A stretch of 56,603 nucleotides of DNA from an uncultured Gammaproteobacteria bacterium (GCA_964614975.1 CAZTOA010000002.1:1-56603); one strand, 5' to 3'; positions 20,733 to 43,287 are shown, counted from the stretch's first letter. A program made the numbers and translations. Notes: generated by a model not told the origin, from the sequence alone.

Positions 20733-20747
20733 AATACCAGCATTGTC

Positions 20748-21081: not shown

Positions 21082-21093
21082 CTTATTAACTTT

Positions 21094-22518: not shown

Positions 22519-22524
22519 CCGGAC

Positions 22525-22548
22525 AAATGCCGACCTCCCTCGGCATTT
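22525..22548 (+). terminator. Hairpin ending cassette 5
   Basis: AAATGCCGA/TCGGCATTT 9-bp stem. A GTCCGG/CCGGAC stem overlaps the stop codon. Confidence 0.5.
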
Positions 22549-22600
22549 CTCTTCATCTTCAGGTGTATAATTTATTCATTACAAGTTCATATAAATACGT

Positions 22601-23167: not shown

Positions 23168-23237
23168 ATATGCCAAGACAAAATCGCTTAGGAACGTTCG
23201 TTTCTTGGGGGAAGCGGTTTGAACAGCGAGGTGACGC

Positions 23238-23441
23238 ATGAACGACGAGTTGCTCGATACGGGAAACCACATGGGAATTCCATACGAGCTTTGGAGAAAG
23301 GACGGCAGGCGCTGTATCGTTGTTCCGAAGGAGTTGCTCGAAAATCCGCCCTACGGCGTAAGCTTCGAGGGTTTTGACGACATTGGCGAGCGCGAAGCCC
23401 AAGATGTTCTATATGACGCCGTTGAAGGCATGTTCGAATAG
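23238..23441 (+). CDS. Cassette 6 ORF: 67-aa acidic protein, paralogue of the cassette 5 ORF
   Basis: GAGG lies 6 nt upstream of the ATG. MNDELLDTGNHMGIPYELWRKDGRRCIVVPKELLENPPYGVSFEGFDDIGEREAQDVLYDAVEGMFE. The leader shares CGCTT...CTTGGGRGGAAGCG with cassette 5. Confidence 0.5.
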   Translation: MNDELLDTGNHMGIPYELWRKDGRRCIVVPKELLENPPYGVSFEGFDDIGEREAQDVLYDAVEGMFE

Positions 23442-23459
23442 CCCGTCAGGCGGGCATAA

Positions 23460-23486
23460 GGAGCCGTCTCCCACGGCTCCTTTCTT
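23460..23486 (+). terminator. Rho-independent terminator of cassette 6
   Basis: GGAGCCG/CGGCTCC stem followed by TTTCTT, preceded by a GCCCG/CGGGC mini-hairpin. Confidence 0.7.
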
Positions 23487-23513
23487 ACTAAAATTAATTT
23501 TATACTAATAAAA

Positions 23514-26573: not shown

Positions 26574-28391
26574 TTATTGTATCAAACCAGGGTGATGTCC
26601 GTTTGCGTGGGGGATAAGAGGAACAATCATACGTGCTCGGCCATTTTGATCCATTACAGTGTTTAAAACAATAGTTTTTCCATCTTTTAGATGATTGCTA
26701 AAAGTTGAATTTCGCATTATTGAGCGCATTCTATCGAATATTTCCCATATAGCATTATTCACATTATTTGTAGCAATAGGATTAATATCTTCACCATCTT
26801 TAAGCTGTGCTGCTCCAACAGCCTGATACCATATTGCACGAACATCTGGGGGTCTATAAGCCATCACTTCTTCGGAGTCCCAGTTAATATGTGAGAATAC
26901 ATCGAGTGCAACTGTTTGCAATTTTTGCCATTCAGCTTCGATCTTTTCACTTGAAGCATTAGGTATCAGATGTTTTACTACTGCCTGATTATCAATAAGC
27001 AATACGTCAGAAGGATCATCAGGAATTCCACCTGCTATACGAAAGTCTCGAATAAGACCATTCGCTCTTCTGATGTTATCAAGCACTTCGTTTTCACCCT
27101 CAAACGATGAGACGAGGAAATGGTCAATATTACCTGGGAAGGGGCCGTAAGCTCTTTCTGTAATTGCAATGACTCTTTCCTGGTGCTTATCGTACTTCCA
27201 TTTCTCATGATTTCTTCCGATAGACCAGCGAGTTACCATGTTCTTCATGAGTAATTTAGCTTTATGGTCAAGTATTTCTTCTTCCATACCATCTTCATCA
27301 TAGATAGCATGTAGTCTTTGCATAAGCATCCGGTAGATAGCTCCATTTCCACCATCGTAAAGATCGGTAAGGGCTTGCCAATTTTTTGCAACGCTCTCGG
27401 CATAATTGAGGCGGAAATTAGCCTTATGAGGTGCATGAGCTTCGAGTTCGGCGACTACCGCAGGTTCTTGTAATATACTCCAGGTATCAATGATCTTGCC
27501 TTCGCGGGCAAGTTGTTCACGAACTGCTGGTGTAAAACCTGTTTCTGGGTCAACATCATTAATGTAACGTTTAAGTCCCATTATTATGGTTCCTAGGTGA
27601 GGGTCGTATGAGAACATATCAGGTATAAGTTCTCCTACGGGTTTTCCAGCTTCTCTTAGTTCATCTGATATTCGTTGAAGTTCTATTGCGATCTTTTTCT
27701 TTCGTACGATATCTTCGTAAAGACCACCATCACCAACAGTGCTGCCGCCTTCTTTTGACATATCACCTCGGGCAGCGCAACCAACGTGGCTGTCAAGACC
27801 ATAATAAATAGTCTCACCTGGATATTGTTCCAACATCGCCTTAAGTCTTTTGTAATAGTCAGATTTTTTATCAAGTCGTACTTCATCGGAATTAAATTGT
27901 TGCTTGAATGCGGTTAAATCACCTGCTTGGGTACGTATAAAGCCTCCTTCTGAGTGCGGGACAAAAGTAAACATAATTGTTGGAATATTTCTTCCATCAA
28001 TGCAAGTGACCATAAAAAAATGATTACCTTCACCATGAAAAGCAAGTTTTTGTTCTCTGGCTTGTTGAAGTTCGGGAGTATCTAATTCGTTTCCTCGAAG
28101 ATAGCGTGAAGCGACATATCTTTCAGCAAACGTTTTAAACTTTCCGAGCTGTTCTGCTGGGATGACGTCGTCATAAAGTGAGAGAGTATATTCAAACTGG
28201 TGGGCTAAGCGATCATCAAGCTCATTGATAGATGGTAACTCAATTGAGTCTTCTTCTTCAGCGCTGTCTATGGTATCTGTCGGTAAATGACTATATACAA
28301 GTGCATCTGATGCAAGAGTGACGCGACTACCAGTATCAATTTGAATAGGACCTCTAATTTCTGCTGCCATATTGTTACTATTATTTTTCAT
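26574..28391 (-). CDS. Large orphan cytoplasmic protein with beta-carbonic-anhydrase-like CxDxR / HxxC signature
   Basis: 605 aa. VTCIDGR (Cys codon at 28002-28004) and DSHVGCAA about 72 residues later. First gene of a four-gene operon with GT2, GT4 and a small membrane protein. Confidence 0.55.
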   Translation of the reverse strand: MKNNSNNMAAEIRGPIQIDTGSRVTLASDALVYSHLPTDTIDSAEEEDSIELPSINELDDRLAHQFEYTLSLYDDVIPAEQLGKFKTFAERYVASRYLRGNELDTPELQQAREQKLAFHGEGNHFFMVTCIDGRNIPTIMFTFVPHSEGGFIRTQAGDLTAFKQQFNSDEVRLDKKSDYYKRLKAMLEQYPGETIYYGLDSHVGCAARGDMSKEGGSTVGDGGLYEDIVRKKKIAIELQRISDELREAGKPVGELIPDMFSYDPHLGTIIMGLKRYINDVDPETGFTPAVREQLAREGKIIDTWSILQEPAVVAELEAHAPHKANFRLNYAESVAKNWQALTDLYDGGNGAIYRMLMQRLHAIYDEDGMEEEILDHKAKLLMKNMVTRWSIGRNHEKWKYDKHQERVIAITERAYGPFPGNIDHFLVSSFEGENEVLDNIRRANGLIRDFRIAGGIPDDPSDVLLIDNQAVVKHLIPNASSEKIEAEWQKLQTVALDVFSHINWDSEEVMAYRPPDVRAIWYQAVGAAQLKDGEDINPIATNNVNNAIWEIFDRMRSIMRNSTFSNHLKDGKTIVLNTVMDQNGRARMIVPLIPHANGHHPGLIQ

Positions 28392-30081: not shown

Positions 30082-31044
30082 TTAAAGAACAGGGTAGGCA
30101 GCTTTGAAAGATGCGAAAGAAACAGGCTTTTTACCCTCAAGTTGGATCTGTATGATTATTGGATCGCTTTCATTGAAGGACATTTCAATAATTTTAAGCC
30201 GCTTTTTTACGTCATCAATCACAACTTCTGTCCATATTCCTGGCCATGGTGAAAGACTGCGATACATGTTCCAAAGGAGTTGTTTTCCATGCGGAACTTC
30301 CCAAGAAAAAGATGAATTTTTTTCTAAGAAAGTCTTAATAATCTCAGGAAATTCATTGATGGTTAATATTTCATCGTTCAAGAGTTTTACTAAAACTTCA
30401 TAAGAAATATATCCGCTTTCCCGCGAAAGCAATTGCGTAAAAGTTTTTTTATTTTCATCTTGAACAGTGGAAACCAGAGTATTTGTAGCAATTTTTTTAA
30501 CACTTTTAAAAAGTATATAGTAACTCATCTGGGCCATTTTAGTTAATAGTTCGTTGTGTAATATATCAGGAGAAATAGCCATTTTTTCTTCTGCAATTAT
30601 CGCTCCGTGATCCATTTTTGCATCCATTTGAATAAGACTAATTGCACTTTCTCTGTCGCCCAAAAGTAGAGGGAAGACGACTGGCGAAGGTCCACGATAT
30701 AGCGGGAGTGCAGAAGGGTGTACATTCCAGAAGCCATACTTTGGGGCTCTGAGAAGATCCGATTTTATTAGGTGTCCATACGCAAAAACAAGGGCAATAT
30801 CGCATCTGTTAAGTATTTCTTGAACATCATCTGTTACTTCGTCAAAGACAGTGATGTTATTTTCTAATGCAAATTGTTTTACAGGACATGGAGTTATTTT
30901 TTGATCACGGCCTACCGGTTTGTCGGGTTGAGTAACAGTACACACTACTTCAAATGTATCTTTTCCTTCATCAACAATTTTCTTTAATAATTCTACAGAA
31001 AATATGGGAGATCCAAAGTAGGCGAGCTTTATTTTATTGCTCAT
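30082..31044 (-). CDS. fmt: Methionyl-tRNA formyltransferase
   Basis: YFGSPIFSV N-terminus and WNVHPSALPLYRGPSP catalytic motif. 8 nt downstream of tyrS. Confidence 0.9.
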   Translation of the reverse strand: MSNKIKLAYFGSPIFSVELLKKIVDEGKDTFEVVCTVTQPDKPVGRDQKITPCPVKQFALENNITVFDEVTDDVQEILNRCDIALVFAYGHLIKSDLLRAPKYGFWNVHPSALPLYRGPSPVVFPLLLGDRESAISLIQMDAKMDHGAIIAEEKMAISPDILHNELLTKMAQMSYYILFKSVKKIATNTLVSTVQDENKKTFTQLLSRESGYISYEVLVKLLNDEILTINEFPEIIKTFLEKNSSFSWEVPHGKQLLWNMYRSLSPWPGIWTEVVIDDVKKRLKIIEMSFNESDPIIIQIQLEGKKPVSFASFKAAYPVL

Positions 31045-31052
31045 AGGTAGTT

Positions 31053-32129
31053 TTAACGAGTGATTTTGTAAGACGAAACCTTTTCGAGCAATGCTTTTGC
31101 TTCTGAATTTTCTTCAAAATGAGCGCGAACAGGTTGAAGTAGTTGGTCAAGAAGTTCTACGACGGCCATTTTTAAATCCATTGGGTGGATTTCTTTCTGA
31201 CCAAATGCAGTTTCTAGCTCAGAATATGTGGAAAAAGTAATATCGCCACCAAATTGTTCAGGTCGTTTTATAGTTATTGAAGGGAACTTCTCGAACAAAA
31301 TGTATTTACAATATTCAAGAATAGGGTTTTCTTCGGTAATACCTTCTGGACACCACGCTTTTGTTATCTTTCTTTCGATATCTGCACGTGTATCAGTCAT
31401 AAAAATAGCTGTATCAGGTTTAGACTTTGACATTTTGAGATCGATAGCTCGCTCCTTTGCATCAGTCGCATCAGTTGTTGGTTTTCCAAGCCCAAGAAGC
31501 ATATGATTACTTACGACAACCGGTTTCCAGTAGCCAACTTCTTCTCCAATTTGACGCGCAAGCATATTTACTTTTCTCTGATCCATGCCGAGTTGGGTTA
31601 CGTTAGCACCTAACATAAAAATGTCGGCAGTTTGCATGATCGGGTAGAGAATCTGCGCTGCAGAAAGGGCATCTTTATCATCGCGACCCATTATCTGTGT
31701 TGTGCGAAGCACGCGATTGAGACTCACTTGGGTCGCAATTTTCATGACGAGTTCCCAATATTCAGGTTTGTGAACCATTTCACTTGCCCAGAGAAACTCG
31801 ACATGATCAAGATCCATACCACAAGCTTTCCAGACTTCAATAAAGTATTTTCCTGTAGTTTGGATTTTCTCAAGATCTCCGCCTAACTTATTATTCAGAT
31901 ATGCATGCCAGTCGGCTACCCACATTTTAAAGGTAAAGCCTGCCTTCGTCATTTTATTGATATTTATTGTGCGGAGAATACCTTGAGCGATATGCATTTG
32001 GCCAGATGGCTCAAATCCATCATATGCGATAAGCGGTTTTCCGCTCTCTAATAACGCGCGCAGGTCGTCTCCAGTATTTATCTCTTCGCCGACCTGCTCA
32101 ATTAATTGTATTTTTTCATCTGTGGTCAT
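31053..32129 (-). CDS. tyrS: Tyrosyl-tRNA synthetase, archaeal/eukaryal type
   Basis: AYDGFEPSGQMHIAQG, YPIMQTADI, KMSKSKP and the C-terminal RPEQFGGDITF...HPMDLK align by eye along the whole length with Methanocaldococcus-type TyrRS. Confidence 0.8.
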   Translation of the reverse strand: MTTDEKIQLIEQVGEEINTGDDLRALLESGKPLIAYDGFEPSGQMHIAQGILRTININKMTKAGFTFKMWVADWHAYLNNKLGGDLEKIQTTGKYFIEVWKACGMDLDHVEFLWASEMVHKPEYWELVMKIATQVSLNRVLRTTQIMGRDDKDALSAAQILYPIMQTADIFMLGANVTQLGMDQRKVNMLARQIGEEVGYWKPVVVSNHMLLGLGKPTTDATDAKERAIDLKMSKSKPDTAIFMTDTRADIERKITKAWCPEGITEENPILEYCKYILFEKFPSITIKRPEQFGGDITFSTYSELETAFGQKEIHPMDLKMAVVELLDQLLQPVRAHFEENSEAKALLEKVSSYKITR

Positions 32130-32278
32130 AGTGATACTTTATTTCGTGCTTTCTTTTTAAGGTCATCGTGTATGTTTCTTTTTACAAGCTCACCATAAAT
32201 GAGAACTAACAATAAAAGTATAAGCGCAATACCAATTCGGAAACTAGCTTCCTCAAAAAATTTAGATATATCTATCAT
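32126..32278 (-). CDS. 50-aa single-TM peptide translationally coupled to tyrS
   Basis: Hand translation: MIDISKFFEEASFRIGIALILLLLVLIYGELVKRNIHDDLKKKARNKVSL. Its TGA overlaps the tyrS ATG (ATGA). Below the ORF-track cutoff. Confidence 0.35.
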   Translation of the reverse strand: MIDISKFFEEASFRIGIALILLLLVLIYGELVKRNIHDDLKKKARNKVSL

Positions 32279-32453
32279 AAGCATACTTATGTTCAATTAT
32301 AACAGCTAGCAAGTACAAAACAGATATAACAGCAGATTGTATAGCGAGCGCACTGCCACTGTGTATGGTTGTCAAACCAAGGACTAGTGTCGCCACAATT
32401 CCCGTGAATATATCTTTTACGATATGTAGATGGGCTAAAGTTGTAATGTTCAT
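32262..32453 (-). CDS. Small two-helix membrane protein
   Basis: 63 aa, hydrophobic. Overlaps the start of the 50-aa ORF. Confidence 0.4.
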   Translation of the reverse strand: MNITTLAHLHIVKDIFTGIVATLVLGLTTIHSGSALAIQSAVISVLYLLAVIIEHKYAYDRYI

Positions 32454-32507
32454 AAGGAAATAATCTCACATGAATATTAAAAGAACATTATCGACTTGGG
32501 AGATTCC

Positions 32508-32987
32508 CTATTCTACTTTTAACGTTTTCAAGATTAGCTCTGTAAGATTCGAGGATGCATTAAACGAAATTACTTGTCGAGTTTTTGTGTTTTTTATTTC
32601 CCACGTACTCACACCTTCTTTTTTAACCATTGGCGTAATGGTATCCGCAACAGCGCCAATTTTCGCAGAATTTGAGGCTATTTTTGCGCATGTTATTTCG
32701 ATCAGTTGATTACCGTCACTAAGTTTTGCTGCTTCGCTTGCATTCTTTTCAACGCCTAATGTCGCTGGATAATTAAACGAAACACCACATGGATGTGTGA
32801 ATGTTTTCAGGACCAACGGAACTGGTGTTGCTGTGGGAATGTATTCTGTGGGAAAAGGAATTCTTGTTGGAGGAACGTACGATTTATCGGTTTTTTCTAC
32901 AAATCTACCGAGTCGGAATCCGCCTAAAAATATGACGAGGAAAGTCAGCGAACCAAAGACTAATAATGAACGCGAGGAGAGTTTCAT
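32508..32987 (-). CDS. Secreted/anchored hypothetical protein
   Basis: Start moved to MKLSSRSLLVFG... (ATG at 32987) because TATACT (32995-33000) sits 7 nt upstream. Signal/anchor helix. Confidence 0.5.
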   Translation of the reverse strand: MKLSSRSLLVFGSLTFLVIFLGGFRLGRFVEKTDKSYVPPTRIPFPTEYIPTATPVPLVLKTFTHPCGVSFNYPATLGVEKNASEAAKLSDGNQLIEITCAKIASNSAKIGAVADTITPMVKKEGVSTWEIKNTKTRQVISFNASSNLTELILKTLKVE

Positions 32988-33025
32988 ACCGAATAGTATA
33001 CACACTTAGTTCAAGCCGAGTCGTA

Positions 33026-34483
33026 TTATTGAGAAATGTATTTCTGATGATCTGCTTTAACAGTAATCCACATCCACTGATTTGTATTTCCGTCAACTCC
33101 TTGTTTATTGCAGGTGAGGACATAATATCCATCGAAGCCAGGTATAACACGGATTTGGTAGTTTACCGGGCTTGCTCCTTCGCTGTCAAGTAATTCCACG
33201 TCTGTAATTACTCCGTTCAATGTATTTCCGTCTTCTGCGTCTAGGACTAGCTTAGTTCCTGCTAATTTTGCAACATTTTCATCACCAAGTTCGTTTGCTC
33301 TTCTTGATATATCTGCGAAAGGGCCCTCTTGTTTTTTCCAAGTTTGATGTGCTTGGACTACGGGTACTTCACTGACGTTAACGATGGTAAGTCCATTAAT
33401 TGTTTGTGGTGCAAGCTCTTCTCCAGGTTCTACTTCGGAATAATCCTGAGTATTTTCTATGCCGACAGGTTTTTGATAGGTATATGAGGTGCCATCAGTA
33501 TATTCAACAGAGAGTTGCATGCTTCCTTTCATCTCCGATAAGTTGGGGGCTTCTGGATTGGTAGATCCAGTTTGCGGTGCGGGATATTGTGCTGAATCTG
33601 GAGTTGCGGTAGGTGCTGTGCGCGCAAGTTGGGTAAAGTAGCGTTGTTCTGCACGGACTTGATCACCAGATTGTCCAGTATATACACTCACATCGCGAGC
33701 GATTGGGTTTGGCTTCGGCAAGTCTAATGTGGGAAGATCGTTATTGGCATGAGTTAGTCGATAAACACCAAACAAAGCGACACCCAATAAGGCAACGTTG
33801 AATGCTTTTCCAGCTAACTCTTTTGCTTTCCCAAGTCCGAATCTTGATCTTCTTTGTGGGGGTGTTGCTACAATTTGTACTGGTTCCGCAACTGGTTCAA
33901 AAAGACCAAGATCTAAAGTTGGAACTATTTCAATAGGCTCAAGAGTAGCAAGAGCAGGGTCGATACTACCAACAGTTTCAATTGGAACTAAAGGTTCCTC
34001 TGGTGGAAGTTCAGCAATTGTGGCTTTTTTTTGGAAGAGTTTCGCTCTACCTTCAGGATTAAATCGATTACGAATCTTAAAAATAGCCGATTGTTTCATT
34101 TTATATGCAGCGGTTTTGTTATAGCCACTTTCTACGAGTTGTTGATAATACGCATCAACTTGAGCCAAGAGACTTTCTTTGTCCAAGCTTTCGGCATTAG
34201 TGGCATACAAAGCGTCCACATATGATTGGGAAACGGCTTTCGCTTCTTCAGTAAGAACCTGAACATGACGCTTGGTTTTTCTTTTTACTTTAATGCGGAG
34301 CAAATCATTACCATTTGCATTTTCAGTGAAGGCTTCTTGGAGAATTTCGTATGGAGAAAGTGGGGTAGGAGCTGCTTCAACGATAGGTTCAGCAGACACA
34401 ACAAAATTATTGCGATTATTAAAAGCTGTCTCTCCGGTTATTTCATCACCTAATCCTAATTCTGATGCTGTTAATCGATACAT
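33026..34483 (-). CDS. Hypothetical protein with central TM helix and C-terminal extracytoplasmic domain
   Basis: 485 aa. TM segment AFNVALLGVALFGVYRL. The C-terminal domain has a VLTC motif (see rejected sortase idea). Confidence 0.5.
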   Translation of the reverse strand: MYRLTASELGLGDEITGETAFNNRNNFVVSAEPIVEAAPTPLSPYEILQEAFTENANGNDLLRIKVKRKTKRHVQVLTEEAKAVSQSYVDALYATNAESLDKESLLAQVDAYYQQLVESGYNKTAAYKMKQSAIFKIRNRFNPEGRAKLFQKKATIAELPPEEPLVPIETVGSIDPALATLEPIEIVPTLDLGLFEPVAEPVQIVATPPQRRSRFGLGKAKELAGKAFNVALLGVALFGVYRLTHANNDLPTLDLPKPNPIARDVSVYTGQSGDQVRAEQRYFTQLARTAPTATPDSAQYPAPQTGSTNPEAPNLSEMKGSMQLSVEYTDGTSYTYQKPVGIENTQDYSEVEPGEELAPQTINGLTIVNVSEVPVVQAHQTWKKQEGPFADISRRANELGDENVAKLAGTKLVLDAEDGNTLNGVITDVELLDSEGASPVNYQIRVIPGFDGYYVLTCNKQGVDGNTNQWMWITVKADHQKYISQ

Positions 34484-34542
34484 ATTGCTTGGAAATTATA
34501 TTCTTTGCTCCTGCACACATTTATATATATGCATAAGCAAAG

Positions 34543-34555
34543 AGGAGAGAGTTGA
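34543..34555. repeat. Left terminal inverted repeat AGGAGAGAGTTGA of cassette 7
   Basis: Perfect reverse complement of 35818-35830 (TCAACTCTCTCCT). 15/16 if extended by 3 nt. Confidence 0.7.
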
Positions 34556-34564
34556 GATCTGGCC

Positions 34565-34603
34565 CAGGGGGCCCGGGTGGCTCGCGCCAACCCGGACCCC
34601 CTG
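34565..34603 (-). terminator. GC-rich hairpin ending cassette 7
   Basis: CAGGGGGCCCGGGT / ACCCGGACCCCCTG (14 bp, one mismatch), 18 nt after the stop codon. Confidence 0.6.
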
Positions 34604-34620
34604 ACCAGCGCATCCGACGC

Positions 34621-35622
34621 TCAGCGGTTGAAGCTGAACGCGGGGAGGAAGCGGCGCCGATTGACGAAGGCCAGGCCGAAAGCCGCGCCGATCGCCATGA
34701 GCCAGCCGATGATGTCGGTGGCCGCGCCGGTGGTGGCACCCTTCGAGCCGGCCAACTTGAGGTCGAACGGCTGGCAGACGCCATCGACCCGGGTGAGCTT
34801 GGTGAAGCTGCCACCGGGAGTCGCGTCCAGGTCGCCGAGGTACATGGGCTTGCCGCCGGAAGTCGGGATGCGGAAGACCCGCCAATTCCCGCTGCTGATG
34901 GCCACCTTGATGCCCACGGCGAGGCCGTCGAAGCTGCGCTCCATGCCCAGCTTCTTGTCCTTGTTGAAGGCCGCCAGGGCCGCCTCGGCGGTCATGGCCT
35001 TGCCGTTCAGCACGAACAGGAGCTTGCCCGTGAACACGTCGTTGGTGTCACCCACGATGACCTCGGCGGTCTTGGTCGTGGTGATCGGCGACGTGGTGGC
35101 GAAGAGGCACATGGCGGTGCCGGTCGGGGCCGCGGCCGTGGTCGTCTTGGTCGTGCCGGTCTTGGCCTTGGCCGTGGTCGTGCCGCAATAGCCACCGAAG
35201 GTGTTCGACTGACCGCCGACGACTGTGAGGAACGTCGGGATGACCTTGACGTTCGTGCCGTTGAAGAGCACGACGACGTAGTCACCCTCGTCGACCCCGC
35301 CGCCACCGACGGTCGTGCCGCCCTTGACGGTGTCGACCACGGTGGTGCGGAGCTGGTAGACGTTGGCCACGCCGGCCTCGTTGGTGCCGGTGATGACCTT
35401 GCCGTTCTTGACGGCCCAGCCCGGGGCATCGGCGTAGAAGAACTTGGCCCAGGTCTGGCCGGAGCCCTCGGAGGGCTGGCACAGCTCCAGGCTGACGTTG
35501 CCCTGGCCGCCCATGGTGGACGGCGAGGCGTTGGCGGTGCCGGCGAAGCCGGCGAGCATGGAGGCCACCAGGACGGCGGCCAGGCCGAAGGACGTGACGA
35601 TGCGATTGAAGCGGGTGGACAT
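34621..35622 (-). CDS. Cassette 7 ORF: 333-aa secreted surface protein with C-terminal sorting-signal-like tail
   Basis: AAGGAG (35633-35638) lies 10 nt upstream of the ATG at 35622. Signal peptide MSTRFNRIVTSFGLAAVLVASMLAGFAGTANA. Two Cys-bracketed domains joined by TTAKAKTGTTKTTTAAAPTGT. The C-terminus is IIGWLMAIGAAFGLAFVNRRRF. Almost every codon ends in G/C. Confidence 0.6.
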   Translation of the reverse strand: MSTRFNRIVTSFGLAAVLVASMLAGFAGTANASPSTMGGQGNVSLELCQPSEGSGQTWAKFFYADAPGWAVKNGKVITGTNEAGVANVYQLRTTVVDTVKGGTTVGGGGVDEGDYVVVLFNGTNVKVIPTFLTVVGGQSNTFGGYCGTTTAKAKTGTTKTTTAAAPTGTAMCLFATTSPITTTKTAEVIVGDTNDVFTGKLLFVLNGKAMTAEAALAAFNKDKKLGMERSFDGLAVGIKVAISSGNWRVFRIPTSGGKPMYLGDLDATPGGSFTKLTRVDGVCQPFDLKLAGSKGATTGAATDIIGWLMAIGAAFGLAFVNRRRFLPAFSFNR

Positions 35623-35817
35623 GGCGTTCGAGCTCCTTTGATATGCGCTGGTGCGCTGGGTTGGTTCCTGCAAGGGAAATACTCGCGACAGCGTCACGAA
35701 TAGTCTTCCCCGCAGGAGAGGGAAGACATGCTGCAGATACGTCATTTGGCGTACCCGCAACATACCTTCCCCCTAAGCAGGGAAAAACATGCCCTTACAA
35801 AAGGCCCATATAATTAA

Positions 35818-35830
35818 TCAACTCTCTCCT
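35818..35830. repeat. Right terminal inverted repeat of cassette 7
   Basis: TCAACTCTCTCCT. Lies in the spacer of a possible TTGAAA-18-TATATG promoter (35831-35836 / 35807-35812, minus strand). Confidence 0.7.
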
Positions 35831-35987
35831 TTTCAAAGTACTTCCCCAATAAGAACCACAACAATAATGCTTTACTATTGATGAGATATATAAAAGGGGA
35901 TAATGGCCGATAGTATATCATACTATAAGATGGAATGCAAGTCATATAGTTTCAGCCAATATTTTTAATATGCTTTTAATTTGACTG

Positions 35988-36200
35988 ATGTATGCTAGCG
36001 ATATGATGCGTTATATTTTTCAAATCTTCGGTGAGTTTTCAGTAGGTATATCAACTATCTATTATGGCTTTGTAGTATCCACTCTGAGTTTTGAGGATGA
36101 TCCTCATAGCAAGGCTTTGTATATTCTGAACAATTTGATCTTTGGTATAATGTTTTTCATATTCGCTGTTATTATTCGTTCACAACAATCTGAGTTATGA
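35988..36200 (+). CDS. Small membrane protein
   Basis: 70 aa. An alternative ATG at 36003 has TATGCT 6 nt upstream. Hydrophobic helices. Confidence 0.4.
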   Translation: MYASDMMRYIFQIFGEFSVGISTIYYGFVVSTLSFEDDPHSKALYILNNLIFGIMFFIFAVIIRSQQSEL

Positions 36201-36346
36201 TCACACAAGAATTTCTACAAGATGTGAATATGGGATTCTTTATCAGCGGTGGTCTTCTGCTTATCGTGTTTATTCTTATGTATATTGCATATCGTCGCGA
36301 TCAATTTTATTCTTCACAGAAGAAGAAGCAAACCAGACCTGCTTGA
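36197..36346 (+). CDS. 49-aa single-TM peptide coupled to the preceding ORF
   Basis: Hand translation: MITQEFLQDVNMGFFISGGLLLIVFILMYIAYRRDQFYSSQKKKQTRPA. ATGA start/stop overlap at 36197-36200. Confidence 0.35.
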   Translation: MITQEFLQDVNMGFFISGGLLLIVFILMYIAYRRDQFYSSQKKKQTRPA

Positions 36347-36372
36347 CAATAAGAATAGACGCGCAGTATAAT
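36343..36372 (+). promoter_or_regulatory. Strong sigma70-type promoter TTGACA-18-TATAAT
   Basis: TTGACA at 36343-36348 and TATAAT at 36367-36372. No ORF start follows for ~300 nt. Confidence 0.55.
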
Positions 36373-36378
36373 AGGGTT

Positions 36379-36587
36379 GATCCTCCTTACAAAGAGGCGT
36401 GTACATTGAAAAAGTTTTTCTAACAATTTCATCAATCAGGGTAATCCATAGTTTCGATTGAAAATATCTAATTATGGAAATCTGGCGGTATCCCGGGATC
36501 CTCTGTTCAGTTTTGAACACGTCGCGGGTGCACCCACCCATTGCTTCATGGAAAAACTTTCTGTATAGCCCTTTATTTAGGAGGGTC
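36379..36587 (+). ncRNA. Candidate ~210-nt rod-like structured RNA (6S-like RNA or rho leader element)
   Basis: The 5' end GATCCTCCT (36379-36387) pairs with AGGAGGGTC (36579-36587). AAAGTTTTTC (36411-36420) pairs perfectly with GAAAAACTTT (36551-36560). Intervening bases pair collinearly with small bulges, giving a ~40-bp imperfect closing helix. Confidence 0.3.
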
Positions 36588-36678
36588 ATTTATTTCCCAC
36601 TGTATATATATTTCCCTTGATTTTCGTACGTAATTAATTATTAGTCATTTATTATTATTCATTCAATTCTAAACTCAT

Positions 36679-38010
36679 ATGTCAGATGATGACACACTTT
36701 TGAACCCCGATGAACTCCACTTTAAGGATTCTCATCCAATACTTCCTGTCGAAGATTTGCCAGAAACTTCTATAGAGAAGCCAGTAGAGGTACCAATTAG
36801 CCAGCCAGTTGCACAAGTACATCATGCCGCGCCAGCTTATGCAGCGCCGATGCGTGAAGAAATGCCACTTGAAGAGCGCATTCAAGAAGATCTTAAAAAC
36901 TCTTTCCCAGGAAAGGGTATTCTTGAAATTACACCCTCAGGTTTTGGCTTTTTGCGTCCAAAATTTACCCCATCGCAAGATGATATTTATGTATCGCAAT
37001 CACAAATTCGCAAGTTTTGGCTTCGCGCAGGAGATGAAGTCGAAGGCCTTATTCGACCTCCAAAGGATAATGAAAAGTACCATGGTCTTTTAAAGATAGA
37101 AAAGGTCAACGATATTCCTATGACCGAAGACGATAGTCGTAATAGAAAGCGCTTTAGCGCACTTACTTCCATGTATCCAGATAGACAAATCAAGCTCGAA
37201 ACCGAGCCTGATATCTTGTCTACACGTATTATGGATTTAGTGTCACCAATCGGATTTGGTCAGCGTGGACTTATTGTATCGCCACCAAAAGCTGGAAAAA
37301 CGACACTTTTGAAGCAAATTGCGAACGGTATTATTACAAATCATCCGAATGCACATCTAATAGCTATCTTGATCGGTGAGCGACCAGAAGAGGTAACTGA
37401 TCTTGCGCGATCAATTAAGGCTGAGGTGGTTTCTTCGCATTTTGACCAGTCACCTCGTGATCAGATCCGCGCGGCTGAAATAGGACTTGAGCGTGCAAAA
37501 CGCCTTGTCGAGACTGGAAAAGACGTTGTCATATTACTCGATTCTATAACAAGACTTGCACGTGCGTACAATTTTGCAGTCAACCCTTCTGGAAGAACTC
37601 TTTCGGGTGGATTTGATCCTGCTGCTTTGTACCCAGCTAAGAAATTCTTAGGTGCAGCTCGAAATTGTGAAGAAGGTGGAAGTTTGACCATTATCGGTAC
37701 TGCTCTTGTAAATACAGAATCTCGTATGGATGACCTTATTTATGAAGAGTTTAAGGGAACGGGTAATATGGAGCTTCACCTTGACCGTGATTCAGCAAAT
37801 AAGCGTATTTACCCAGCAATTGATATTGAGCGTTCAGGAACACGCCATGACGAACTTTTGTTCGACAAGGATACTCTTGATAAGCTCGCAACATTGCGCC
37901 GCATGATGGCCTTACTCGATAAAGATGAGCGTATAACCGCCATGATCGACAAGCTTTCTAAGGTAAAAACGAATGCTGAGTTTCTTAAGGAGCTCACTGT
38001 CGGGAAGTAA
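36679..38010 (+). CDS. rho: Transcription termination factor Rho
   Basis: N-terminal extension, RNA-binding OB region (GFGFLR), Walker A PPKAGKTTLL and RLARAYN motif. Confidence 0.95.
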   Translation: MSDDDTLLNPDELHFKDSHPILPVEDLPETSIEKPVEVPISQPVAQVHHAAPAYAAPMREEMPLEERIQEDLKNSFPGKGILEITPSGFGFLRPKFTPSQDDIYVSQSQIRKFWLRAGDEVEGLIRPPKDNEKYHGLLKIEKVNDIPMTEDDSRNRKRFSALTSMYPDRQIKLETEPDILSTRIMDLVSPIGFGQRGLIVSPPKAGKTTLLKQIANGIITNHPNAHLIAILIGERPEEVTDLARSIKAEVVSSHFDQSPRDQIRAAEIGLERAKRLVETGKDVVILLDSITRLARAYNFAVNPSGRTLSGGFDPAALYPAKKFLGAARNCEEGGSLTIIGTALVNTESRMDDLIYEEFKGTGNMELHLDRDSANKRIYPAIDIERSGTRHDELLFDKDTLDKLATLRRMMALLDKDERITAMIDKLSKVKTNAEFLKELTVGK

Positions 38011-38069
38011 GCGCGAGCCAAGTTTTTCTGCTTGCACATCCATTTTTTGTGGAGTAAAATGGTCCAATT

Positions 38070-39362
38070 ATGGATCCATTTGAAAATGCGCTAACGTTTC
38101 TCAATAACATCAAGTCTAATCTTTCAAAAGAGCATCAGAAATACCTTTCTAGACTTCAAAAGCCCCAAAATATCGTAAAAGGTGAGCTCGAAATTACCAT
38201 GGATAATGGTAAGAAGAAGAAATTCCAGGCATTTCGATCTCAGCATAATAATGCTCTCGGCCCCTATAAAGGCGGTATCCGTTTTCATCCCAATGTTTCC
38301 GAATCTGAGGTCAAGGCTTTGTCTCTTTGGATGTCGCTCAAGACTTCTATTGCCGGAATTCCATATGGAGGCGGCAAAGGTGGGATTATCGTAGAGCCTC
38401 GCGACTTAAGTGCCGGCGAACTTGAGCGTCTTTCACGCGCATATATAACCTTTATTGCACCTCATATTGGTGTTGATAAAGATGTTCCAGCGCCTGATGT
38501 CAATACAAATGGACAAATTATGGCCTGGATGCTTGATGAGTACGAGAAGCTCCAAGGCCATCATGAACCTGGCGTTTTAACAGGTAAACCGCTTGAAATT
38601 GGTGGGTCTGAAGGTCGCACAAAGGCAACAGGTTATGGCGGCGTTTTGGCTCTGGAAGCGCTTCTTGAGCAAATTAAAGATGTTATCGATAAGCCTAAGG
38701 CACAGATTACGATTGCGGTTCAAGGATTTGGAAATGTAGGCTATTATTTTGCAAAAATAGCTTCGGATCAAGGATACCGCGTCGTAGCAGTCTCGGATTC
38801 AAAAGGTGGCGTATATATTGAAGAAGGACTTGATCCAGCAGCCACACTTGCATGCAAAGAACAGAAAGGAAAGATCTCGAATTGTTACTGTGTTGGCGGC
38901 GTTTGTGAGCTCGGAAAAGGTAAAGAAATTACAAATGAAGCTTTGCTCGAGCTCGATGTAGATGTGTTGGTGCCTGCGGCCTTAGAAAACGTATTGCATA
39001 AAGATAATGCAGGCAAGATTAAGGCGAAAGTAGTCATCGAAATGGCAAATGGGCCGTTAACAAGCGAGGCTGACGACATTTTGACGAAAAAAGGTGTTTT
39101 AGTTGTGCCTGACATATTTTCGAATGCAGGTGGAGTAACTGTTTCATACCTAGAATGGGTTCAAAATCGCATGGGTTACTACTGGAGTGAGGCTGAGGTT
39201 GATGCCAAGCTTGAAAACCTTATGGCAAAGGCTTTTGAGGCTATGTGGAAGAAGTATGGCGAGCTCAAGGAGAAGGATAAAAAGAGCGCGAGCCTCAGAA
39301 AAGCAGCATATATTCTCGCTGTTGAGCGTATTCTAGCAGCTGAGATGCTTAGAAGACCGTAA
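38070..39362 (+). CDS. gdhA: Glutamate dehydrogenase (Glu/Leu/Phe/Val dehydrogenase family)
   Basis: YKGGIRFHP, PYGGGKGG and GFGNVG dinucleotide-fold motifs. Confidence 0.9.
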   Translation: MDPFENALTFLNNIKSNLSKEHQKYLSRLQKPQNIVKGELEITMDNGKKKKFQAFRSQHNNALGPYKGGIRFHPNVSESEVKALSLWMSLKTSIAGIPYGGGKGGIIVEPRDLSAGELERLSRAYITFIAPHIGVDKDVPAPDVNTNGQIMAWMLDEYEKLQGHHEPGVLTGKPLEIGGSEGRTKATGYGGVLALEALLEQIKDVIDKPKAQITIAVQGFGNVGYYFAKIASDQGYRVVAVSDSKGGVYIEEGLDPAATLACKEQKGKISNCYCVGGVCELGKGKEITNEALLELDVDVLVPAALENVLHKDNAGKIKAKVVIEMANGPLTSEADDILTKKGVLVVPDIFSNAGGVTVSYLEWVQNRMGYYWSEAEVDAKLENLMAKAFEAMWKKYGELKEKDKKSASLRKAAYILAVERILAAEMLRRP

Positions 39363-39959
39363 CCTGTCCAGGATCGTATCCTTCGATATCCAACTACGCT
39401 CTCGTGTTCCAAGATAATCTCTTAAGCTTGACCACAGATATGCTTCTGGATCTTGCGTACCAAATTGTAGCTCAGATGGGTTGTGGTGTATGTAATTTAG
39501 CACGGTTTTATAGTAGGTCTCATTCTTGACATGAATTCCCTTGTATCTTGCCTGGAACAACGGTCCTATACGCTCATATTTCTTTCCATAGTACATAGCA
39601 TAGCTTGTTTGAAGTGACTTCATAAACTGAGAAATGGAGCGTTCACCAACTTGTTCTACAAGCAGATGAAAGTGGTTTGGCATAAGGCAAAATGCCAGCA
39701 GCTTAATCTCTTTAGAGTAGTTTTTTTGTCGAGAAGCTCTGTGCAGCAGGTGAGTAAGGCGTTTCGAGCTTACGGGAAGTGTGGCGTGTTTTAACGCTGT
39801 ATATAGTTCACTGGCAGGGCACAGATACATTGTTAGACCCCTTTCAAAATACGCATAATCATCTGTGTTATGGTAAATTTCCATCTTATCAATACCACGA
39901 TTATAAATGTGATATAGCCCTCCGGCTACAAATTCTTTCCGTTCATGTCGTGATGGCAT
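39333..39959 (-). CDS. IS200/IS605-type Y1 (HUH) transposase-like protein, RayT-like
   Basis: YHIYNRG..., LMPNHFHLLV (HUH) and YIHHNPSE motifs. Its 3' end overlaps gdh by 30 nt. No TnpB or flanking hairpin family seen. Confidence 0.75.
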   Translation of the reverse strand: MPSRHERKEFVAGGLYHIYNRGIDKMEIYHNTDDYAYFERGLTMYLCPASELYTALKHATLPVSSKRLTHLLHRASRQKNYSKEIKLLAFCLMPNHFHLLVEQVGERSISQFMKSLQTSYAMYYGKKYERIGPLFQARYKGIHVKNETYYKTVLNYIHHNPSELQFGTQDPEAYLWSSLRDYLGTRERSWISKDTILDRLRSSKHLSC

Positions 39960-40021: not shown

Positions 40022-40033
40022 ACGGTCTTGATT

Positions 40034-40252
40034 ATGGATACACGTATAAACAGACTCGTTGGGCAGATCGAAGGTATTCGTCGCATGATAAATAGTAAGC
40101 GAAAGAGTGGCGATGTCGTTCAACAAATACTTGCGGCGCGTGAAGCGCTCACAAAAATCGGCATGCTTGTCTTAAAAGAAGAGCTTGGTGAAGCCTCAGG
40201 AAAAAATAAAGCCAAAATGGATAAACTTCTCGAACAAATCTTCAGAATGTAA
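40034..40252 (+). CDS. CsoR/RcnR/FrmR-family (DUF156) transcriptional repressor lacking the Cys/His metal ligands
   Basis: RINRLVGQIEGIRRMI...QQILAAREALTKIGMLVLKEEL matches the family helix pattern. There are no Cys or His residues at the usual x-C-H-C positions. The ORF track starts at the TTG at 40028. Confidence 0.7.
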   Translation: MDTRINRLVGQIEGIRRMINSKRKSGDVVQQILAAREALTKIGMLVLKEELGEASGKNKAKMDKLLEQIFRM

Positions 40253-40253: not shown

Positions 40254-40282
40254 TTGCATATCCTATAGTTCTGTATTAAAAT
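40254..40282 (+). promoter_or_regulatory. Promoter of cassette 8 (TTGCAT-17-TAAAAT)
   Basis: -35 at 40254-40259 and -10 at 40277-40282, directly after the CsoR-like stop codon. Confidence 0.5.
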
Positions 40283-40317
40283 AGTAGCTCGCGTTGTCCT
40301 ACCATAAGGAGTTTGCG

Positions 40318-40533
40318 GTGATACCCAACGACGTGGTGCAGTTTCCGTGGGATGGTCATACGTATGCCATCCCTTCCACACGGGTTGCCGATCAGGTGAT
40401 ATGCATGCCTGGCGGCACGAAGAAGCTCGTCGTTCGCAGCTGGAAGCCAAATGGCAGCCCGCATGTTGTCATCCAGCTCGACAGCTCAAACGCTCCCGAG
40501 AGCGTTTGCGTCTGGGCCACGCTCGTCAGCTAG
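40318..40533 (+). CDS. Cassette 8 ORF: 71-aa protein (V)IPNDVVQFPWDGHTYAIPSTRVADQVICMPGGTKKLVVRSWKPNGSPHVVIQLDSSNAPESVCVWATLVS
   Basis: AAGGAG (40306-40311) lies 6 nt upstream of the GTG at 40318. GC-rich codons. The ORF-track version starts at a TTG inside the leader. Confidence 0.5.
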   Translation: MIPNDVVQFPWDGHTYAIPSTRVADQVICMPGGTKKLVVRSWKPNGSPHVVIQLDSSNAPESVCVWATLVS

Positions 40534-40568
40534 TCTGACGCATACTGGCCGTGTAGGACGTATTCGCT

Positions 40569-40598
40569 GAAGCCGGCCCCCACTGCGGGGCCGGCTTC
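40569..40598 (+). terminator. GC-rich hairpin ending cassette 8
   Basis: GAAGCCGGCCCC / GGGGCCGGCTTC perfect 12-bp stem with loop CACTGC. Confidence 0.6.
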
Positions 40599-40653
40599 TC
40601 AATCCTTTCCTGGAAAAACGTAACCCTCCTTTTCTGCTATAATGTAAGTCTCA

Positions 40654-41745
40654 ATGATTTCGGAAAAGACCTTCGCGAGGGAACTTGCTGAGTTCATTCG
40701 TTTCCTTGCAGGCTACATAAAACTCCGGCTCCATGGTTGGGGAACCAATTTTGAGCACATCAAAGACATAATCGTTGCCTTCTTAGTAGTTAAGAGAGGT
40801 AAGTATTCCCAGTCTTTTCTTAATACCTCGTTCTTTCTACTTGTTGGAGCAACACTTATCGCAGGTCCAATTATTATTGAAAACAACCCTTTTATTTCTG
40901 ATTATTTTCAGAATGAAGAAAGTTCTGTGCAAAGTGTTTTGGCCACAGATGTAAGCGACTTATCAGTACAGACTACAATATCTAATAAACCGCGTGCCGA
41001 GATTCGTGAATATAAGGTTAAAGCAGGTGATACGCTCGCAAGCATAGCAGACCAATTTGATATAAGCGTAGACTCGTTAAAGTGGGAGAATAACCTAAAA
41101 GGAGATTCTATAAAGCCTGGTCAAACAATTCGTGTTTTACCTGTATCTGGAGTGGCACATAAAGTAAAGTCAGGAGAAAGCATTTATTCTATTGCAAAGC
41201 GATACGGTGTTGACGCGCAGTCAATAGTTAACTTTCCATTCAACGAATTTGAAGATCTTGATACATTTGCTTTAAGCGTAGGTCAGACATTAATTGTTCC
41301 AGGTGGAACACCACCACAAGAGAAACCCACTATTGTTAGGGGTAAGGCTCCACAACGAGTTAATATTGTTGCTGGACAACCTGGAAGTGGTCGATTTATT
41401 TGGCCAACAACAGGAAGTGTAAGTCAATATCCAGTGTATTATCACATGGCGCTAGATATTGCGAATCGCTCACTCCCTCCTGTCATAGCCTCAGATACGG
41501 GAACAGTTTCATTCTCTGGATGTGTAGGGTATGGATATGGATGCCATGTCATCATTGATCACGGAAATGGCTTCCAAACGCTCTATGGGCATCTTTCGCG
41601 TATAGATGTAAATGCTGGTCAAAATGTAAGTCAGGGAGAAAAGATTGGAACACTTGGATCAACAGGGCGTTCTACAGGGCCTCATTTGCACTTCGAAGTG
41701 CGTAAGGGTGGAGTGCTTCAAAATCCGCTAGGATATCTGCAGTAA
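40654..41745 (+). CDS. LysM-domain M23 peptidoglycan endopeptidase
   Basis: Two LysM repeats (YKVKAGDTLASIADQF, HKVKSGESIYSIAKRYGV), then the M23 motif HxxxD...HLHFEV. Confidence 0.9.
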   Translation: MISEKTFARELAEFIRFLAGYIKLRLHGWGTNFEHIKDIIVAFLVVKRGKYSQSFLNTSFFLLVGATLIAGPIIIENNPFISDYFQNEESSVQSVLATDVSDLSVQTTISNKPRAEIREYKVKAGDTLASIADQFDISVDSLKWENNLKGDSIKPGQTIRVLPVSGVAHKVKSGESIYSIAKRYGVDAQSIVNFPFNEFEDLDTFALSVGQTLIVPGGTPPQEKPTIVRGKAPQRVNIVAGQPGSGRFIWPTTGSVSQYPVYYHMALDIANRSLPPVIASDTGTVSFSGCVGYGYGCHVIIDHGNGFQTLYGHLSRIDVNAGQNVSQGEKIGTLGSTGRSTGPHLHFEVRKGGVLQNPLGYLQ

Positions 41746-43181: not shown

Positions 43182-43232
43182 ATGAAATACGTATCCGCAT
43201 TCATTATTTTCTTTCTTATTATCGCCATCTAG
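43182..43232 (+). CDS. 16-codon hydrophobic leader-type ORF MKYVSAFIIFFLIIAI
   Basis: Preceded by TTGCAA...TGTGATAAT (43141-43167) and followed by the terminator at 43264-43287. 4 Phe and 5 Ile in 16 codons. No SD, as for host genes. Confidence 0.25.
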   Translation: MKYVSAFIIFFLIIAI

Positions 43233-43263
43233 GGCGAGGAAGAAGTGTGAATGCACACAGACA

Positions 43264-43287
43264 CCCGCCCAAAAGGCGGGTTTTTTT
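43264..43287 (+). terminator. Rho-independent terminator/attenuator upstream of the ATP-grasp operon
   Basis: CCCGCC-CAAAA-GGCGGG followed by TTTTTTT. 22 nt before the ATG at 43310. Confidence 0.8.

Follow-up and report, generated by a model that had tools for sequence, protein, structure and literature searches.

Does a gene of extreme GC content, lying between the arms of a perfect inverted repeat, represent a mobile element, a foreign gene, or a resident unit whose flanks have a function of their own? The question is raised by a block of 1.3 kb found within a DNA stretch of 56,603 nucleotides, an entire NCBI contig, deposited under the name of an uncultured Gammaproteobacteria bacterium (GCA_964614975.1, CAZTOA010000002.1:1-56603) and called here, over its whole length, the window. 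The block contains a gene for a secreted protein of 333 aa, enclosed by a 13-nt repeat. A sequence-only reading had proposed either a non-autonomous cargo element bounded by terminal inverted repeats (TIRs) or a precise transplant from a high-GC organism. The analysis reported here points to an expression unit that resides in a Microgenomates bacterium as a single copy, is inherited vertically and is not mobile, and in whose mRNA the 5' and 3' flanks would pair to form a panhandle. As a whole, this explanation is held with moderate confidence.

A GC-rich gene at a conserved genomic site

The window contains ordinary bacterial housekeeping genes, coding for Rho, glutamate dehydrogenase (Gdh), TyrRS, Fmt, a penicillin-binding protein (PBP), MetRS, DprA and YchF. 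Its Rho protein is closest to those of metagenome-assembled genomes named Candidatus Woesebacteria and Roizmanbacteria, with 72-84% amino acid identity. Judged by this relationship, the host is a Microgenomates bacterium, of the candidate phyla radiation (CPR) or Patescibacteria, similar to Roizmanbacteria and Woesebacteria.

The GC content of the window is 0.42, and its sole strongly GC-rich block is an island at 34487-35797, with a content of 0.646. GC-rich DNA begins within about 10 nt of the left repeat arm, as first noticed from the sequence, with a sharp passage from 0.30 to 0.70, while the edge on the right is gradual and runs through a leader of roughly 55% GC. Almost exclusive use of codons ending in G or C had also been claimed for the 333-aa gene, and the codon counts bear this out: the GC content at positions 1, 2 and 3 is 0.554, 0.527 and 0.946, respectively, against a third-position content (GC3) of 0.28-0.38 in nine neighboring genes, and the codons AAA, GAA, CAA, TTT and ATT are not used at all. 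The content at the second position is raised as well (0.53 versus about 0.36), owing to an abundance of Gly, Ala, Thr and Val in the protein. When the GC islands of the window were compared, a period-3 GC signal was found only in the one that holds this gene.

At least six diverged relatives have the gene at the same site, with the order rho ... gene ... o485-tyrS-fmt. Orthologous loci with the gene at this position are L005, L010, L014, L097, L098, L099-L101 and L133; where the contigs are long enough, the rho side is found upstream, and a homologue of the adjacent gene o485, followed by o165, tyrS and fmt, downstream. The aligned flanking segments of the relatives are 69-94% identical to the window at the nucleotide level. 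In addition, other Logan assemblies, possibly derived from the same study as the window, match the region at 100% identity with both junctions included, and one Logan contig of 7.2 kb runs continuously from tyrS to rho, covering positions 31008-38206. The junctions, for which a check had been asked earlier, are thus not a product of one assembly alone.

Comparison with other loci showed that the gene order fmt-tyrS-o165-[variable]-rho-gdh is kept. In distant Microgenomates, the GC-rich gene and o485 are both absent between tyrS/o165 and rho, where unrelated DNA without a GC island is located. This distribution suggests that the two genes were gained once, by whatever means, in the ancestor of a narrow clade.

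Evolution of the gene and the question of a mobile origin

Between the window and its relatives, the GC-rich gene shows a synonymous divergence (dS) of 0.42-0.63; for o485 the value is 0.40-0.97 over all pairs. The five orthologues measured have a GC3 of 0.915-0.946 with AT-rich flanks, and their synonymous differences are mostly C/G transversions, by which GC is preserved. Because orthologues at dS 0.4-0.6 hold a GC3 of 0.92-0.95 through such GC-keeping changes, the saturated GC3 is best read as the equilibrium state of the locus, not as a sign of foreign DNA yet to be ameliorated.

The ratio of nonsynonymous to synonymous divergence (dN/dS) is 0.82-0.91 for the GC-rich gene, compared with 0.25-0.35 for o485. 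The open reading frame (ORF) is intact in five diverged orthologues, and indels are in frame. Signal peptide and anchor are near-identical between alleles with differing domains, which occur in varied combinations: the L005 protein corresponds to the N-terminal half of L014 joined to the C-terminal half of L010, a Cys-containing type of N-domain is common to the related proteins P0001 and P0008, a second type of C-domain is common to P0007, P0008 and P0012, and P0010 consists of a single domain. Diversifying selection on a surface protein, together with recombination among its alleles, leaves a pattern of this kind.

Two candidate causes may be named for the saturated GC3. One is selection on the RNA, by which a structured message high in GC and low in AU-rich sites for ribonucleases would be favored; the other, in line with both the mosaicism and the invariant flanks described below, is GC-biased gene conversion at a hot spot of recombination. 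The saturation is unlike the translational selection of the host, because the GC3 of rho and gdh is only 0.34-0.38. A literature search on GC-rich genes in Patescibacteria or Microgenomates returned nothing relevant.

A non-autonomous, TIR-bounded cargo element, or the fossil of one, inserted with a gene from a high-GC donor, would explain several features: the perfect 13-nt terminal inverted repeat at a composition boundary, a codon usage and amino acid composition typical of organisms of about 70% GC, and the lack of the gene and o485 at the syntenic site of distant Microgenomates, whereby the unit must have been gained at some point. The likeness to miniature inverted-repeat transposable elements (MITEs) and similar cargo elements consists in short terminal inverted repeats around a segment devoid of a transposase, and the repeats do enclose none, as already stated from the sequence. 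In contrast to such elements, the unit is single-copy in the contigs available, and the 16-mer of the repeat was found nowhere else in 103 fetched loci, which include over 1 Mb of Microgenomates DNA. A search of IMG/VR with the repeat gave 29 unpaired matches, a chance-level result, and in JGI metagenomes the leader motif was found at this locus only. No direct repeat abuts both arms, and thus no conserved target-site duplication exists; the CTTTG beside the left arm, evaluated as a candidate duplication, forms part of the H3' hairpin stem, and neither L098 nor L100 has it. Presence/absence polymorphism is not observed among the relatives sharing o485: each of them also has the cassette, and an empty site joining 34542 to 35831 was not seen. 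Moreover, the right-hand 'end' does not mark a composition boundary, being located inside the conserved, presumably transcribed regulatory sequence of the leader.

The high-GC transplant fares no better, given that GC3 stays at 0.92-0.95 over a dS of about 0.5 and that neither a donor homologue in any database searched nor a homologue outside the clade was found. A mobile or imported origin of this kind is therefore considered very unlikely, and the locus is, on the comparisons available, neither a recent insertion nor an un-ameliorated transplant. The inverted repeat is conserved in other copies of the gene, which points to a function and not to transposition.

Two nested complements flank the gene

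A repeat search of the window confirmed the inverted repeat in all details first given: the word AGGAGAGAGTTGA occurs exactly twice, at 34543-34555 (+) and 35818-35830 (-), against a chance expectation of 0.02, and complementarity is 15/16 (94%) when the arms are extended to 16 nt. Among 39 window genes, this is the one with the longest complement between 5' and 3' flanks, 13 nt, the next being 12 nt and the median 7. The window alone lends the repeat moderate significance; its weight derives from conservation in relatives.

The upstream arm, arm A, was found in L010, L097, L098, L099, L100, L101 and L133, and the downstream arm, A', is conserved in all relatives whose contigs reach it (coordinates of all features are collected in Table 1). 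The most informative difference is found in L100, where both arms read ...GTTGTT instead of ...GTTGA. The common repeat becomes GGAGAGAGTTGTT, which is still 13 nt long: an A-U pair of the A:A' helix is changed to U-A on both sides, a pair is gained at the inner end, and the register of the helix is shifted. The gene enclosed in L098 is only 27% identical and codes for a single domain; this locus has an unaltered arm A and an arm A' that deviates at one end. L010 lacks one base of A'.

A second complement, formed by segments B and B' with 10 of 10 positions matching, is nested inside the first and directly flanks the coding sequence (CDS). The core of segment B, ACCAGCGC, is invariant in all lineages, and B' is invariant in the relatives except for its first base in L100. 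Over four lineages, A:A' comprises 11-13 bp and B:B' 8-11 bp.

The second-longest flank complement of the window, TATATTCTTCTT (12 nt), was found between the stretch of 300 nt upstream and that of 200 nt downstream of the gene at 26574-28391, coding for 605 aa. It is AT-rich and may well be due to chance.

Promoter, leader and local RNA structure

A putative promoter, P1, precedes arm A. L010, L098 (TTGCAA) and L100 (TTGATA) retain its hexamers at the same distance of 17 nt, while the spacer sequence varies. Transcription would start near 35905, a position which places arm A within the 5' untranslated region (UTR). The TTGAAA/TATATG promoter previously suggested around the right repeat is present in the window, but its -10 element is absent in L098. 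That an insertion recruited a host -35 element, as also suggested, is unlikely, with the better conserved TTGCAT-N17-TATACT lying about 85 nt upstream. The AAGGAG at 10 nt from the ATG could be read directly in the sequence, and GGAG is kept at this position in the orthologues.

The flanks of the gene are near-invariant, from about 35940 to the ATG and over the 137 nt which separate the stop codon from the start of o485; both coding regions adjoining them diverge, with dS of 0.4-1.0. The leader is strongly structured: the fold of 35600-35812 has a minimum free energy (MFE) of -92.5 kcal/mol, corresponding to z = -6.1 relative to dinucleotide shuffles. The leader hairpin GTCTTCCC/GGGAAGAC singled out in the sequence-only reading does exist, but the minimum-energy fold incorporates both segments into a longer hairpin of 25 bp. 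Across lineages, the leader pairs are kept by one-sided and two-sided changes (helices 4-8), and in L133 a GT-to-AC change turns wobble pairs into Watson-Crick pairs.

Two further hairpins lie downstream of the CDS. The first, T1, had been taken for a terminator; a GC hairpin is indeed located at this position, but no T-run follows it and a terminator scan did not call it. Its stem sequence differs in the window, L098 and L100 with pairing retained, five pairs being changed on both sides (helix 10). The second, H3', has 17 pairs, 10 of which are changed on both sides across lineages, and 96.5% of its cells are paired (helix 11).

The conservation of pairing was evaluated on a five-sequence alignment (A6), in which the 5' UTR was joined to the 3' region. 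Overall, 93.4% of the cells are paired, and 24 of 134 pairs are changed on both sides; the mean of shuffled alignments is 10.9, none of 500 shuffles reaches 24, and slid controls give 3-7. These figures have to be read considering that only about four lineages are independent and that the structure was derived from one of them. Covariation is concentrated chiefly in three local hairpins, namely the second hairpin of the leader, T1 behind the stop codon and H3' ahead of o485. In Rfam 15, neither the leader nor the 3' flank has a match at the gathering score, and only noise was obtained at E <= 10 for the 1.5-kb region.

Table 1. Features of the GC-rich locus, in window coordinates. All are on the minus strand; sequences are given in the sense of the transcript.
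Feature	Coordinates	Strand	Remarks
Promoter P1	35912..35940	(-)	-35 TTGCAT 35940-35935, spacer 17 nt, -10 TATACT 35917-35912
5' UTR	35623..35905	(-)	about 283 nt, about 55% GC; near-invariant among relatives
Arm A, 5' arm of 13-nt repeat	35818..35830	(-)	sense RNA AGGAGAGAGUUGA, purine-rich, Shine-Dalgarno-like
Structured leader domain	35654..35808	(-)	outer stems around a 25-bp hairpin (about 35774-35717) and a 10-bp hairpin (35702-35680)
Segment B, inner 5' complement	35643..35652	(-)	ACCAGCGCAU; about 5 nt upstream of the Shine-Dalgarno
Shine-Dalgarno AAGGAG	35633..35638	(-)	10 nt from the ATG at 35622
CDS of the secreted protein	34621..35622	(-)	333 aa; period-3 GC, ORF kept in orthologues
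Segment B', inner 3' complement	34604..34613	(-)	AUGCGCUGGU; starts 8 nt after the stop codon
GC-rich hairpin T1	34565..34603	(-)	after the stop codon, no U-tract behind
Arm A', 3' arm of 13-nt repeat	34543..34555	(-)	sense RNA UCAACUCUCUCCU, pyrimidine-rich, anti-Shine-Dalgarno-like
AT-rich hairpin H3'	34500..34542	(-)	abuts A'; the next gene starts about 20 nt further on
o485, downstream gene	33026..34483	(-)	beside the GC-rich gene in every case; predicted transmembrane helix

A proposed panhandle mRNA and its alternatives

Folding of the predicted transcript of 1425 nt yields both A:A' and B:B' in the MFE and centroid structures. In full-length transcripts of five lineages with different CDSs, the predicted pair probability of A:A' is 0.94-0.98.

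In the mechanism that is proposed, the sigma-70-like promoter P1 would start the transcript near 35905, with arm A included, and transcription would read through hairpin T1 to arm A' and into o485; such read-through is plausible, since T1 lacks a U-tract and was passed over by the terminator scan. The two arms would then pair in the RNA, and 5' and 3' UTRs would close the coding region into a panhandle. The A:A' helix may control the access of ribonucleases, either by protecting the ends or by offering a double-stranded processing site at which the cistron is split from o485, or both, and would in this way set the stability or the translation of the mRNA for an abundant, antigenically variable surface protein. 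The near-invariant flanks probably double as homology arms for the shuffling of alleles between lineages. The analysis shows a conserved complementarity, one concerted change, covarying hairpins next to the arms and a thermodynamically plausible fold; that the two arms are co-transcribed and pair in vivo, and the effect ascribed to the pairing, are inferred.

Several points weigh against this explanation. Covariation within A:A' amounts to one pair changed on both sides, 11 of the 13 pairs never vary, and the changes of A' in L010 and L098 merely shorten the helix; the very invariance of the long-range helices limits the support that can be drawn from them to that one pair. Paired binding sites of a protein, or gene conversion acting on DNA repeats, would equally lead to the same change on both arms. 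The predicted probability of B:B' is highly variable, from 0 to 0.98, and a thermodynamic prediction over 1.4 kb takes no account of ribosomes or of folding during transcription. Arm A also falls within the spacer of a second plausible promoter of the window, TTGAAA-N17-TTATAT, the use of which would leave the arm untranscribed. That the transcript starts near 35905, continues through the GC hairpin and includes o485 is deduced from sequence features. Finally, with a 12-nt flank complement present at another window gene, a length of 13 nt is not extraordinary in itself.

This last point, together with the location of both arms in blocks invariant over more than 100 nt, so that conservation of the arms alone does not prove an interaction, leads to the alternative that the repeat is incidental: A and A' would be conserved for separate reasons, for instance the former as promoter spacer or decoy ribosome-binding site and the latter for the regulation of o485, with a complementarity devoid of function. 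Most changes in the arms are in fact not compensatory. An incidental repeat fails to account, however, for the concerted A-to-T change in both arms of L100, where the shifted register keeps 13 bp, for a helix length held at 11-13 bp in four lineages, for the presence of the second, nested complement, and for a high pairing probability in five sequence contexts. It is judged improbable.

A role of the repeat at the DNA level was also considered. The arms might be recombination sites of an invertible segment, involved in phase variation, or paired operators by which one regulator loops out 1.26 kb. The geometry is workable for an ON/OFF switch, since the repeats bracket the surface-protein gene and its leader with P1 outside, and the identical change on both arms of L100 fits sites of one protein or homogenization by recombination. 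Logan contigs L011 and L005 start at or just inside arm A. Contig ends near the arms could be a hint of graph branching, but their positions are inconsistent (the end of L001 is 10 nt outside, the start of L005 8 nt inside), and they were given no weight. Inversion would create the junction GCAAAG-AGGAGAGAGTTGA-TTAATTATATGG and its partner, but a single orientation is found in all informative contigs (L001, L005, L006, L010, L097, L098, L100, L102 and L133), which are assemblies, not reads, from several samples and lineages. The window of 56 kb contains no invertase or integrase: its sole recombinase is an IS200-like Y1 transposase located 3.5 kb away, of a type which does not use such repeats. 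The nested B:B' complement and the covarying hairpins that abut both 3' arms are also left unexplained. A DNA-level role is accordingly regarded as unlikely.

An extension of the panhandle explanation may be put forward only tentatively, and it is more doubtful than the panhandle itself. The locus could represent a previously undescribed, 'RNA-framed' type of CPR antigen locus, in which a hypervariable CDS of about 95% GC3, set in an AT-rich genome, and a frame of two nested 5'-3' helices with covarying hairpins act together. Possibly, GC saturation and frame make the mRNA refractory to ribonucleases that prefer AU; or else the invariant frame could serve as homology arms, with GC-biased conversion driving GC3 to saturation.

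The encoded protein and its relatives

The architecture first described for the protein was recovered by reading the sequence: a signal-peptide-like N-terminus ending in ANA|S, four Cys residues in two pairs, a linker of Thr, Lys and Ala, and a hydrophobic C-terminus, i.e. a transmembrane (TM) helix, followed by NRRRF, with RRRF at its end. The linker separates a variable N-terminal domain from a Cys-bracketed C-terminal one. A motif of the [A/P]xTG kind (ATTG, ARTG, GRTG, LETG) is located ahead of the hydrophobic stretch and RRR tail, and G299 is the sole invariant column of alignment A5.

Of the C-terminal sorting signal that had been assumed, the hydrophobic stretch and the RRR tail are present, but curated sorting-signal models gave no match at threshold. 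The best sub-threshold matches, MYXO-CTERM (E = 0.13) and, for the relative P0007, NPXTG (E = 0.04), are at noise level; the LPXTG model does not match the C-terminus. For the PEP-CTERM/exosortase and rhombosortase (GlyGly-CTERM) types, neither a PEP or GlyGly motif before the TM helix nor a model match at E <= 10 was found, and the window has no match to Pfam Sortase. Anchoring to the surface by a type-I membrane anchor, made up of TM helix and basic tail, is the conservative reading.

Pfam and NCBIfam searches with the 333-aa protein gave no match. Among 5.8 billion proteins only five clusters of relatives were found, with no donor-like homologue, and among 1.84 billion cluster representatives nine matches at E <= 0.001. 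The contigs examined all carry the gene at the same locus; the weakest of the nine, P0013 (E = 7e-5), is repetitive in sequence and probably a false match. No homologue was found in IMG/VR or in the species genomes of GTDB. These counts are lower bounds, and the family is under-represented in databases because gene callers either miss the gene or call fragments or an antisense ORF of 383 aa in its place. An AlphaFold2 model of the protein, built on a 5-sequence alignment, has a predicted local distance difference test score (pLDDT) of 41.6, and its Foldseek/PDB matches are not meaningful.

Such faulty calls were observed at 34552-35703 (+) of the window, at 3545-4696 in L102 and at 2325-3509 in L133. 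The antisense ORF of the window, 34552..35703 (+), which starts at a TTG in arm A', was rejected as a by-product of GC3 periodicity (its GC1 is 0.92). An extended ORF of 380 aa from the ATG at 35763 was ruled out by leader indels that are out of frame across orthologues, and small leader peptides starting at a TTG inside arm A are not conserved.

Two public contigs deserve a note. L099, i.e. OBLX010001772.1, has Illumina adapter remnants at both ends (CTCTTCCGATCT... / ...AGATCGGAAGAG). L097, i.e. JAHZTO010005775.1, has 100-N scaffold gaps at 2816-2915, 5080-5179 and 6756-6855; one of them falls inside the GC-rich gene and is the reason for the truncated annotation of 163 aa.

Other features of the window

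The codon usage of o485 is normal and AT-rich (GC3 = 0.276). Its C-terminal domain has an invariant His379, Gly-Pro, Ala-Ser-Pro and Thr457-Cys458-x-Lys. The order His...Thr-Cys raised the possibility of a dedicated sortase, which is not claimed, as no similarity to SrtA, Pfam or PDB entries was detected: o485 has no family, Pfam or PDB match, and comparison by hhalign with Staphylococcus aureus SrtA gave a probability of 0.15%. AlphaFold2 on the single sequence of the C-domain gave a pLDDT of 35 and an unusable model.

Directly upstream of the cassette promoter, a segment of about 390 nt (35943-36333) is replaced by about 30 nt in L010, L097, L098, L099, L101 and L133. In the window it contains two small plus-strand ORFs, of 70 aa and of 49 aa, the latter coding for the hydrophobic peptide MITQEFLQDVNMGFFISGGLLLIVFILMYIAYRRDQFYSSQKKKQTRPA. 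Beyond it, a perfect consensus promoter, TTGACA-18-TATAAT at 36343-36372, is followed by a leader of about 300 nt upstream of rho (window 36343-36678), 88-94% identical in relatives, which probably is an autoregulatory rho leader. The minus-strand ORF of 91 aa which overlaps it (36314-36589) is probably spurious.

The IS200-like Y1 transposase homologue (Pfam Y1_Tnp, E = 2e-12) adjoins a CsoR-type metal-sensing repressor; the two are located at 39333-39959 (-) and 40028-40252 (+). The arrangement is repeated in L097, and a homologue lies downstream of rho and gdh in L024; the transposase may be a domesticated or fixed copy. At 43212-43284 (+), just upstream of a 528-aa ORF starting at 43310, a sub-threshold Rfam match to the Pseudomonas small RNA P9 was found (34.8 bits versus a gathering score of 43, E = 0.001).

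Seven more islands, with GC contents of 0.51-0.59, were detected at 6693-7382, 13812-14259, 18735-19237, 20443-21141, 22332-22573, 23207-23490 and 40282-40658. Four are contained entirely in gaps between long ORFs, while 18735-19237, 20443-21141 and 22332-22573 overlap the ends of neighboring ORFs. None of the seven has a clean ORF, a period-3 GC signal, flanking repeats or an Rfam match even at E <= 1; lacking the repeats and the period-3 signal, they were rejected as further cassettes of the same kind. With the exception of 23207-23490, they fold far better than dinucleotide shuffles, with z between -3 and -8 on both strands, and the island 40282-40658 has a GC-rich counterpart in L097 (967-1330) of about 69% identity, between flanking genes at 86-88%. 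By their predicted folds, these islands are candidates for large structured RNAs in a CPR genome.

Comparison with known systems and significance

Closure of a long RNA by complementary flanks is known from rRNA operons, where the 5' and 3' flanks of 16S or 23S rRNA pair into RNase III sites, the processing stalks. The locus resembles them in that a long GC-rich RNA would be closed into a loop by its flanks, with local hairpins adjacent; the enclosed RNA is here a protein-coding mRNA, and the helices, of 13 and 10 bp, do not reach the length of typical RNase III stalks. Alleles are swapped by homologous recombination in variable surface-antigen loci whose flanks are conserved, and the near-identical signal peptide, anchor and flanks, combined with varied N- and C-domains, are reminiscent of them. 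Here, in contrast, there is one gene, without silent cassettes, and to our knowledge an extreme local GC3 has no counterpart in such loci.

The closest likeness in mRNA is offered by the hbs transcript of Bacillus subtilis, where a 14-bp contact of the 5' UTR with the 3' UTR modulates how RNase Y cleaves the former (Braun, Durand and Condon 2017, PMC5737220). In both cases a helix of similar length, 13 bp here, would connect a structured 5' UTR to the 3' UTR of one mRNA, and the modulation of RNase Y is the kind of ribonuclease control proposed for the panhandle. The present locus differs in having two nested complements, a 3' arm that is intercistronic, not terminal, and a GC3-saturated, hypervariable CDS; it belongs to an uncultured CPR bacterium, has no sequence similarity to hbs, and its pairing is predicted from sequence.

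In the icaR mRNA of S. aureus, a UCCCCUG motif of the 3' UTR pairs with the Shine-Dalgarno region, by which a substrate of RNase III is created (Ruiz de los Mozos et al. 2013, PMC3868564), and in B. subtilis anti-Shine-Dalgarno-like sequences have an effect at a range of hundreds of nucleotides (Gill et al. 2025 preprint, PMC12697547). The pyrimidine-rich, anti-Shine-Dalgarno-like 3' segment UCAACUCUCUCCU and the purine-rich, Shine-Dalgarno-like 5' segment AGGAGAGAGUUGA are similar in kind. The 5' partner is here, however, not the working Shine-Dalgarno: it lies about 180 nt upstream of it, and direct occlusion of the ribosome-binding site is for this reason not an obvious effect. Conceivably, arm A and the true Shine-Dalgarno would compete for A'.

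A GC3 of 0.95 among genes near 0.3 would normally be taken as the mark of fresh horizontal transfer; here it appears to be an equilibrium, maintained over substantial divergence. If so, the genome-wide mutation bias can be overridden at a single locus by a force that acts locally, be it GC-biased conversion or selection on the RNA, with a bearing on the detection of horizontal gene transfer by composition and on the debate over biased gene conversion in bacteria. The pairing of 5' and 3' flanks, if true, would extend the few documented bacterial cases, such as hbs and icaR, to a deep-branching lineage and would provide a compact, conserved system for tests. It is probably through their surface proteins that CPR/Patescibacteria meet hosts and phages, and hardly any of these proteins has been characterized; the family described here, confined to a narrow clade, fast-evolving and nearly invisible in protein databases, would be one of them.

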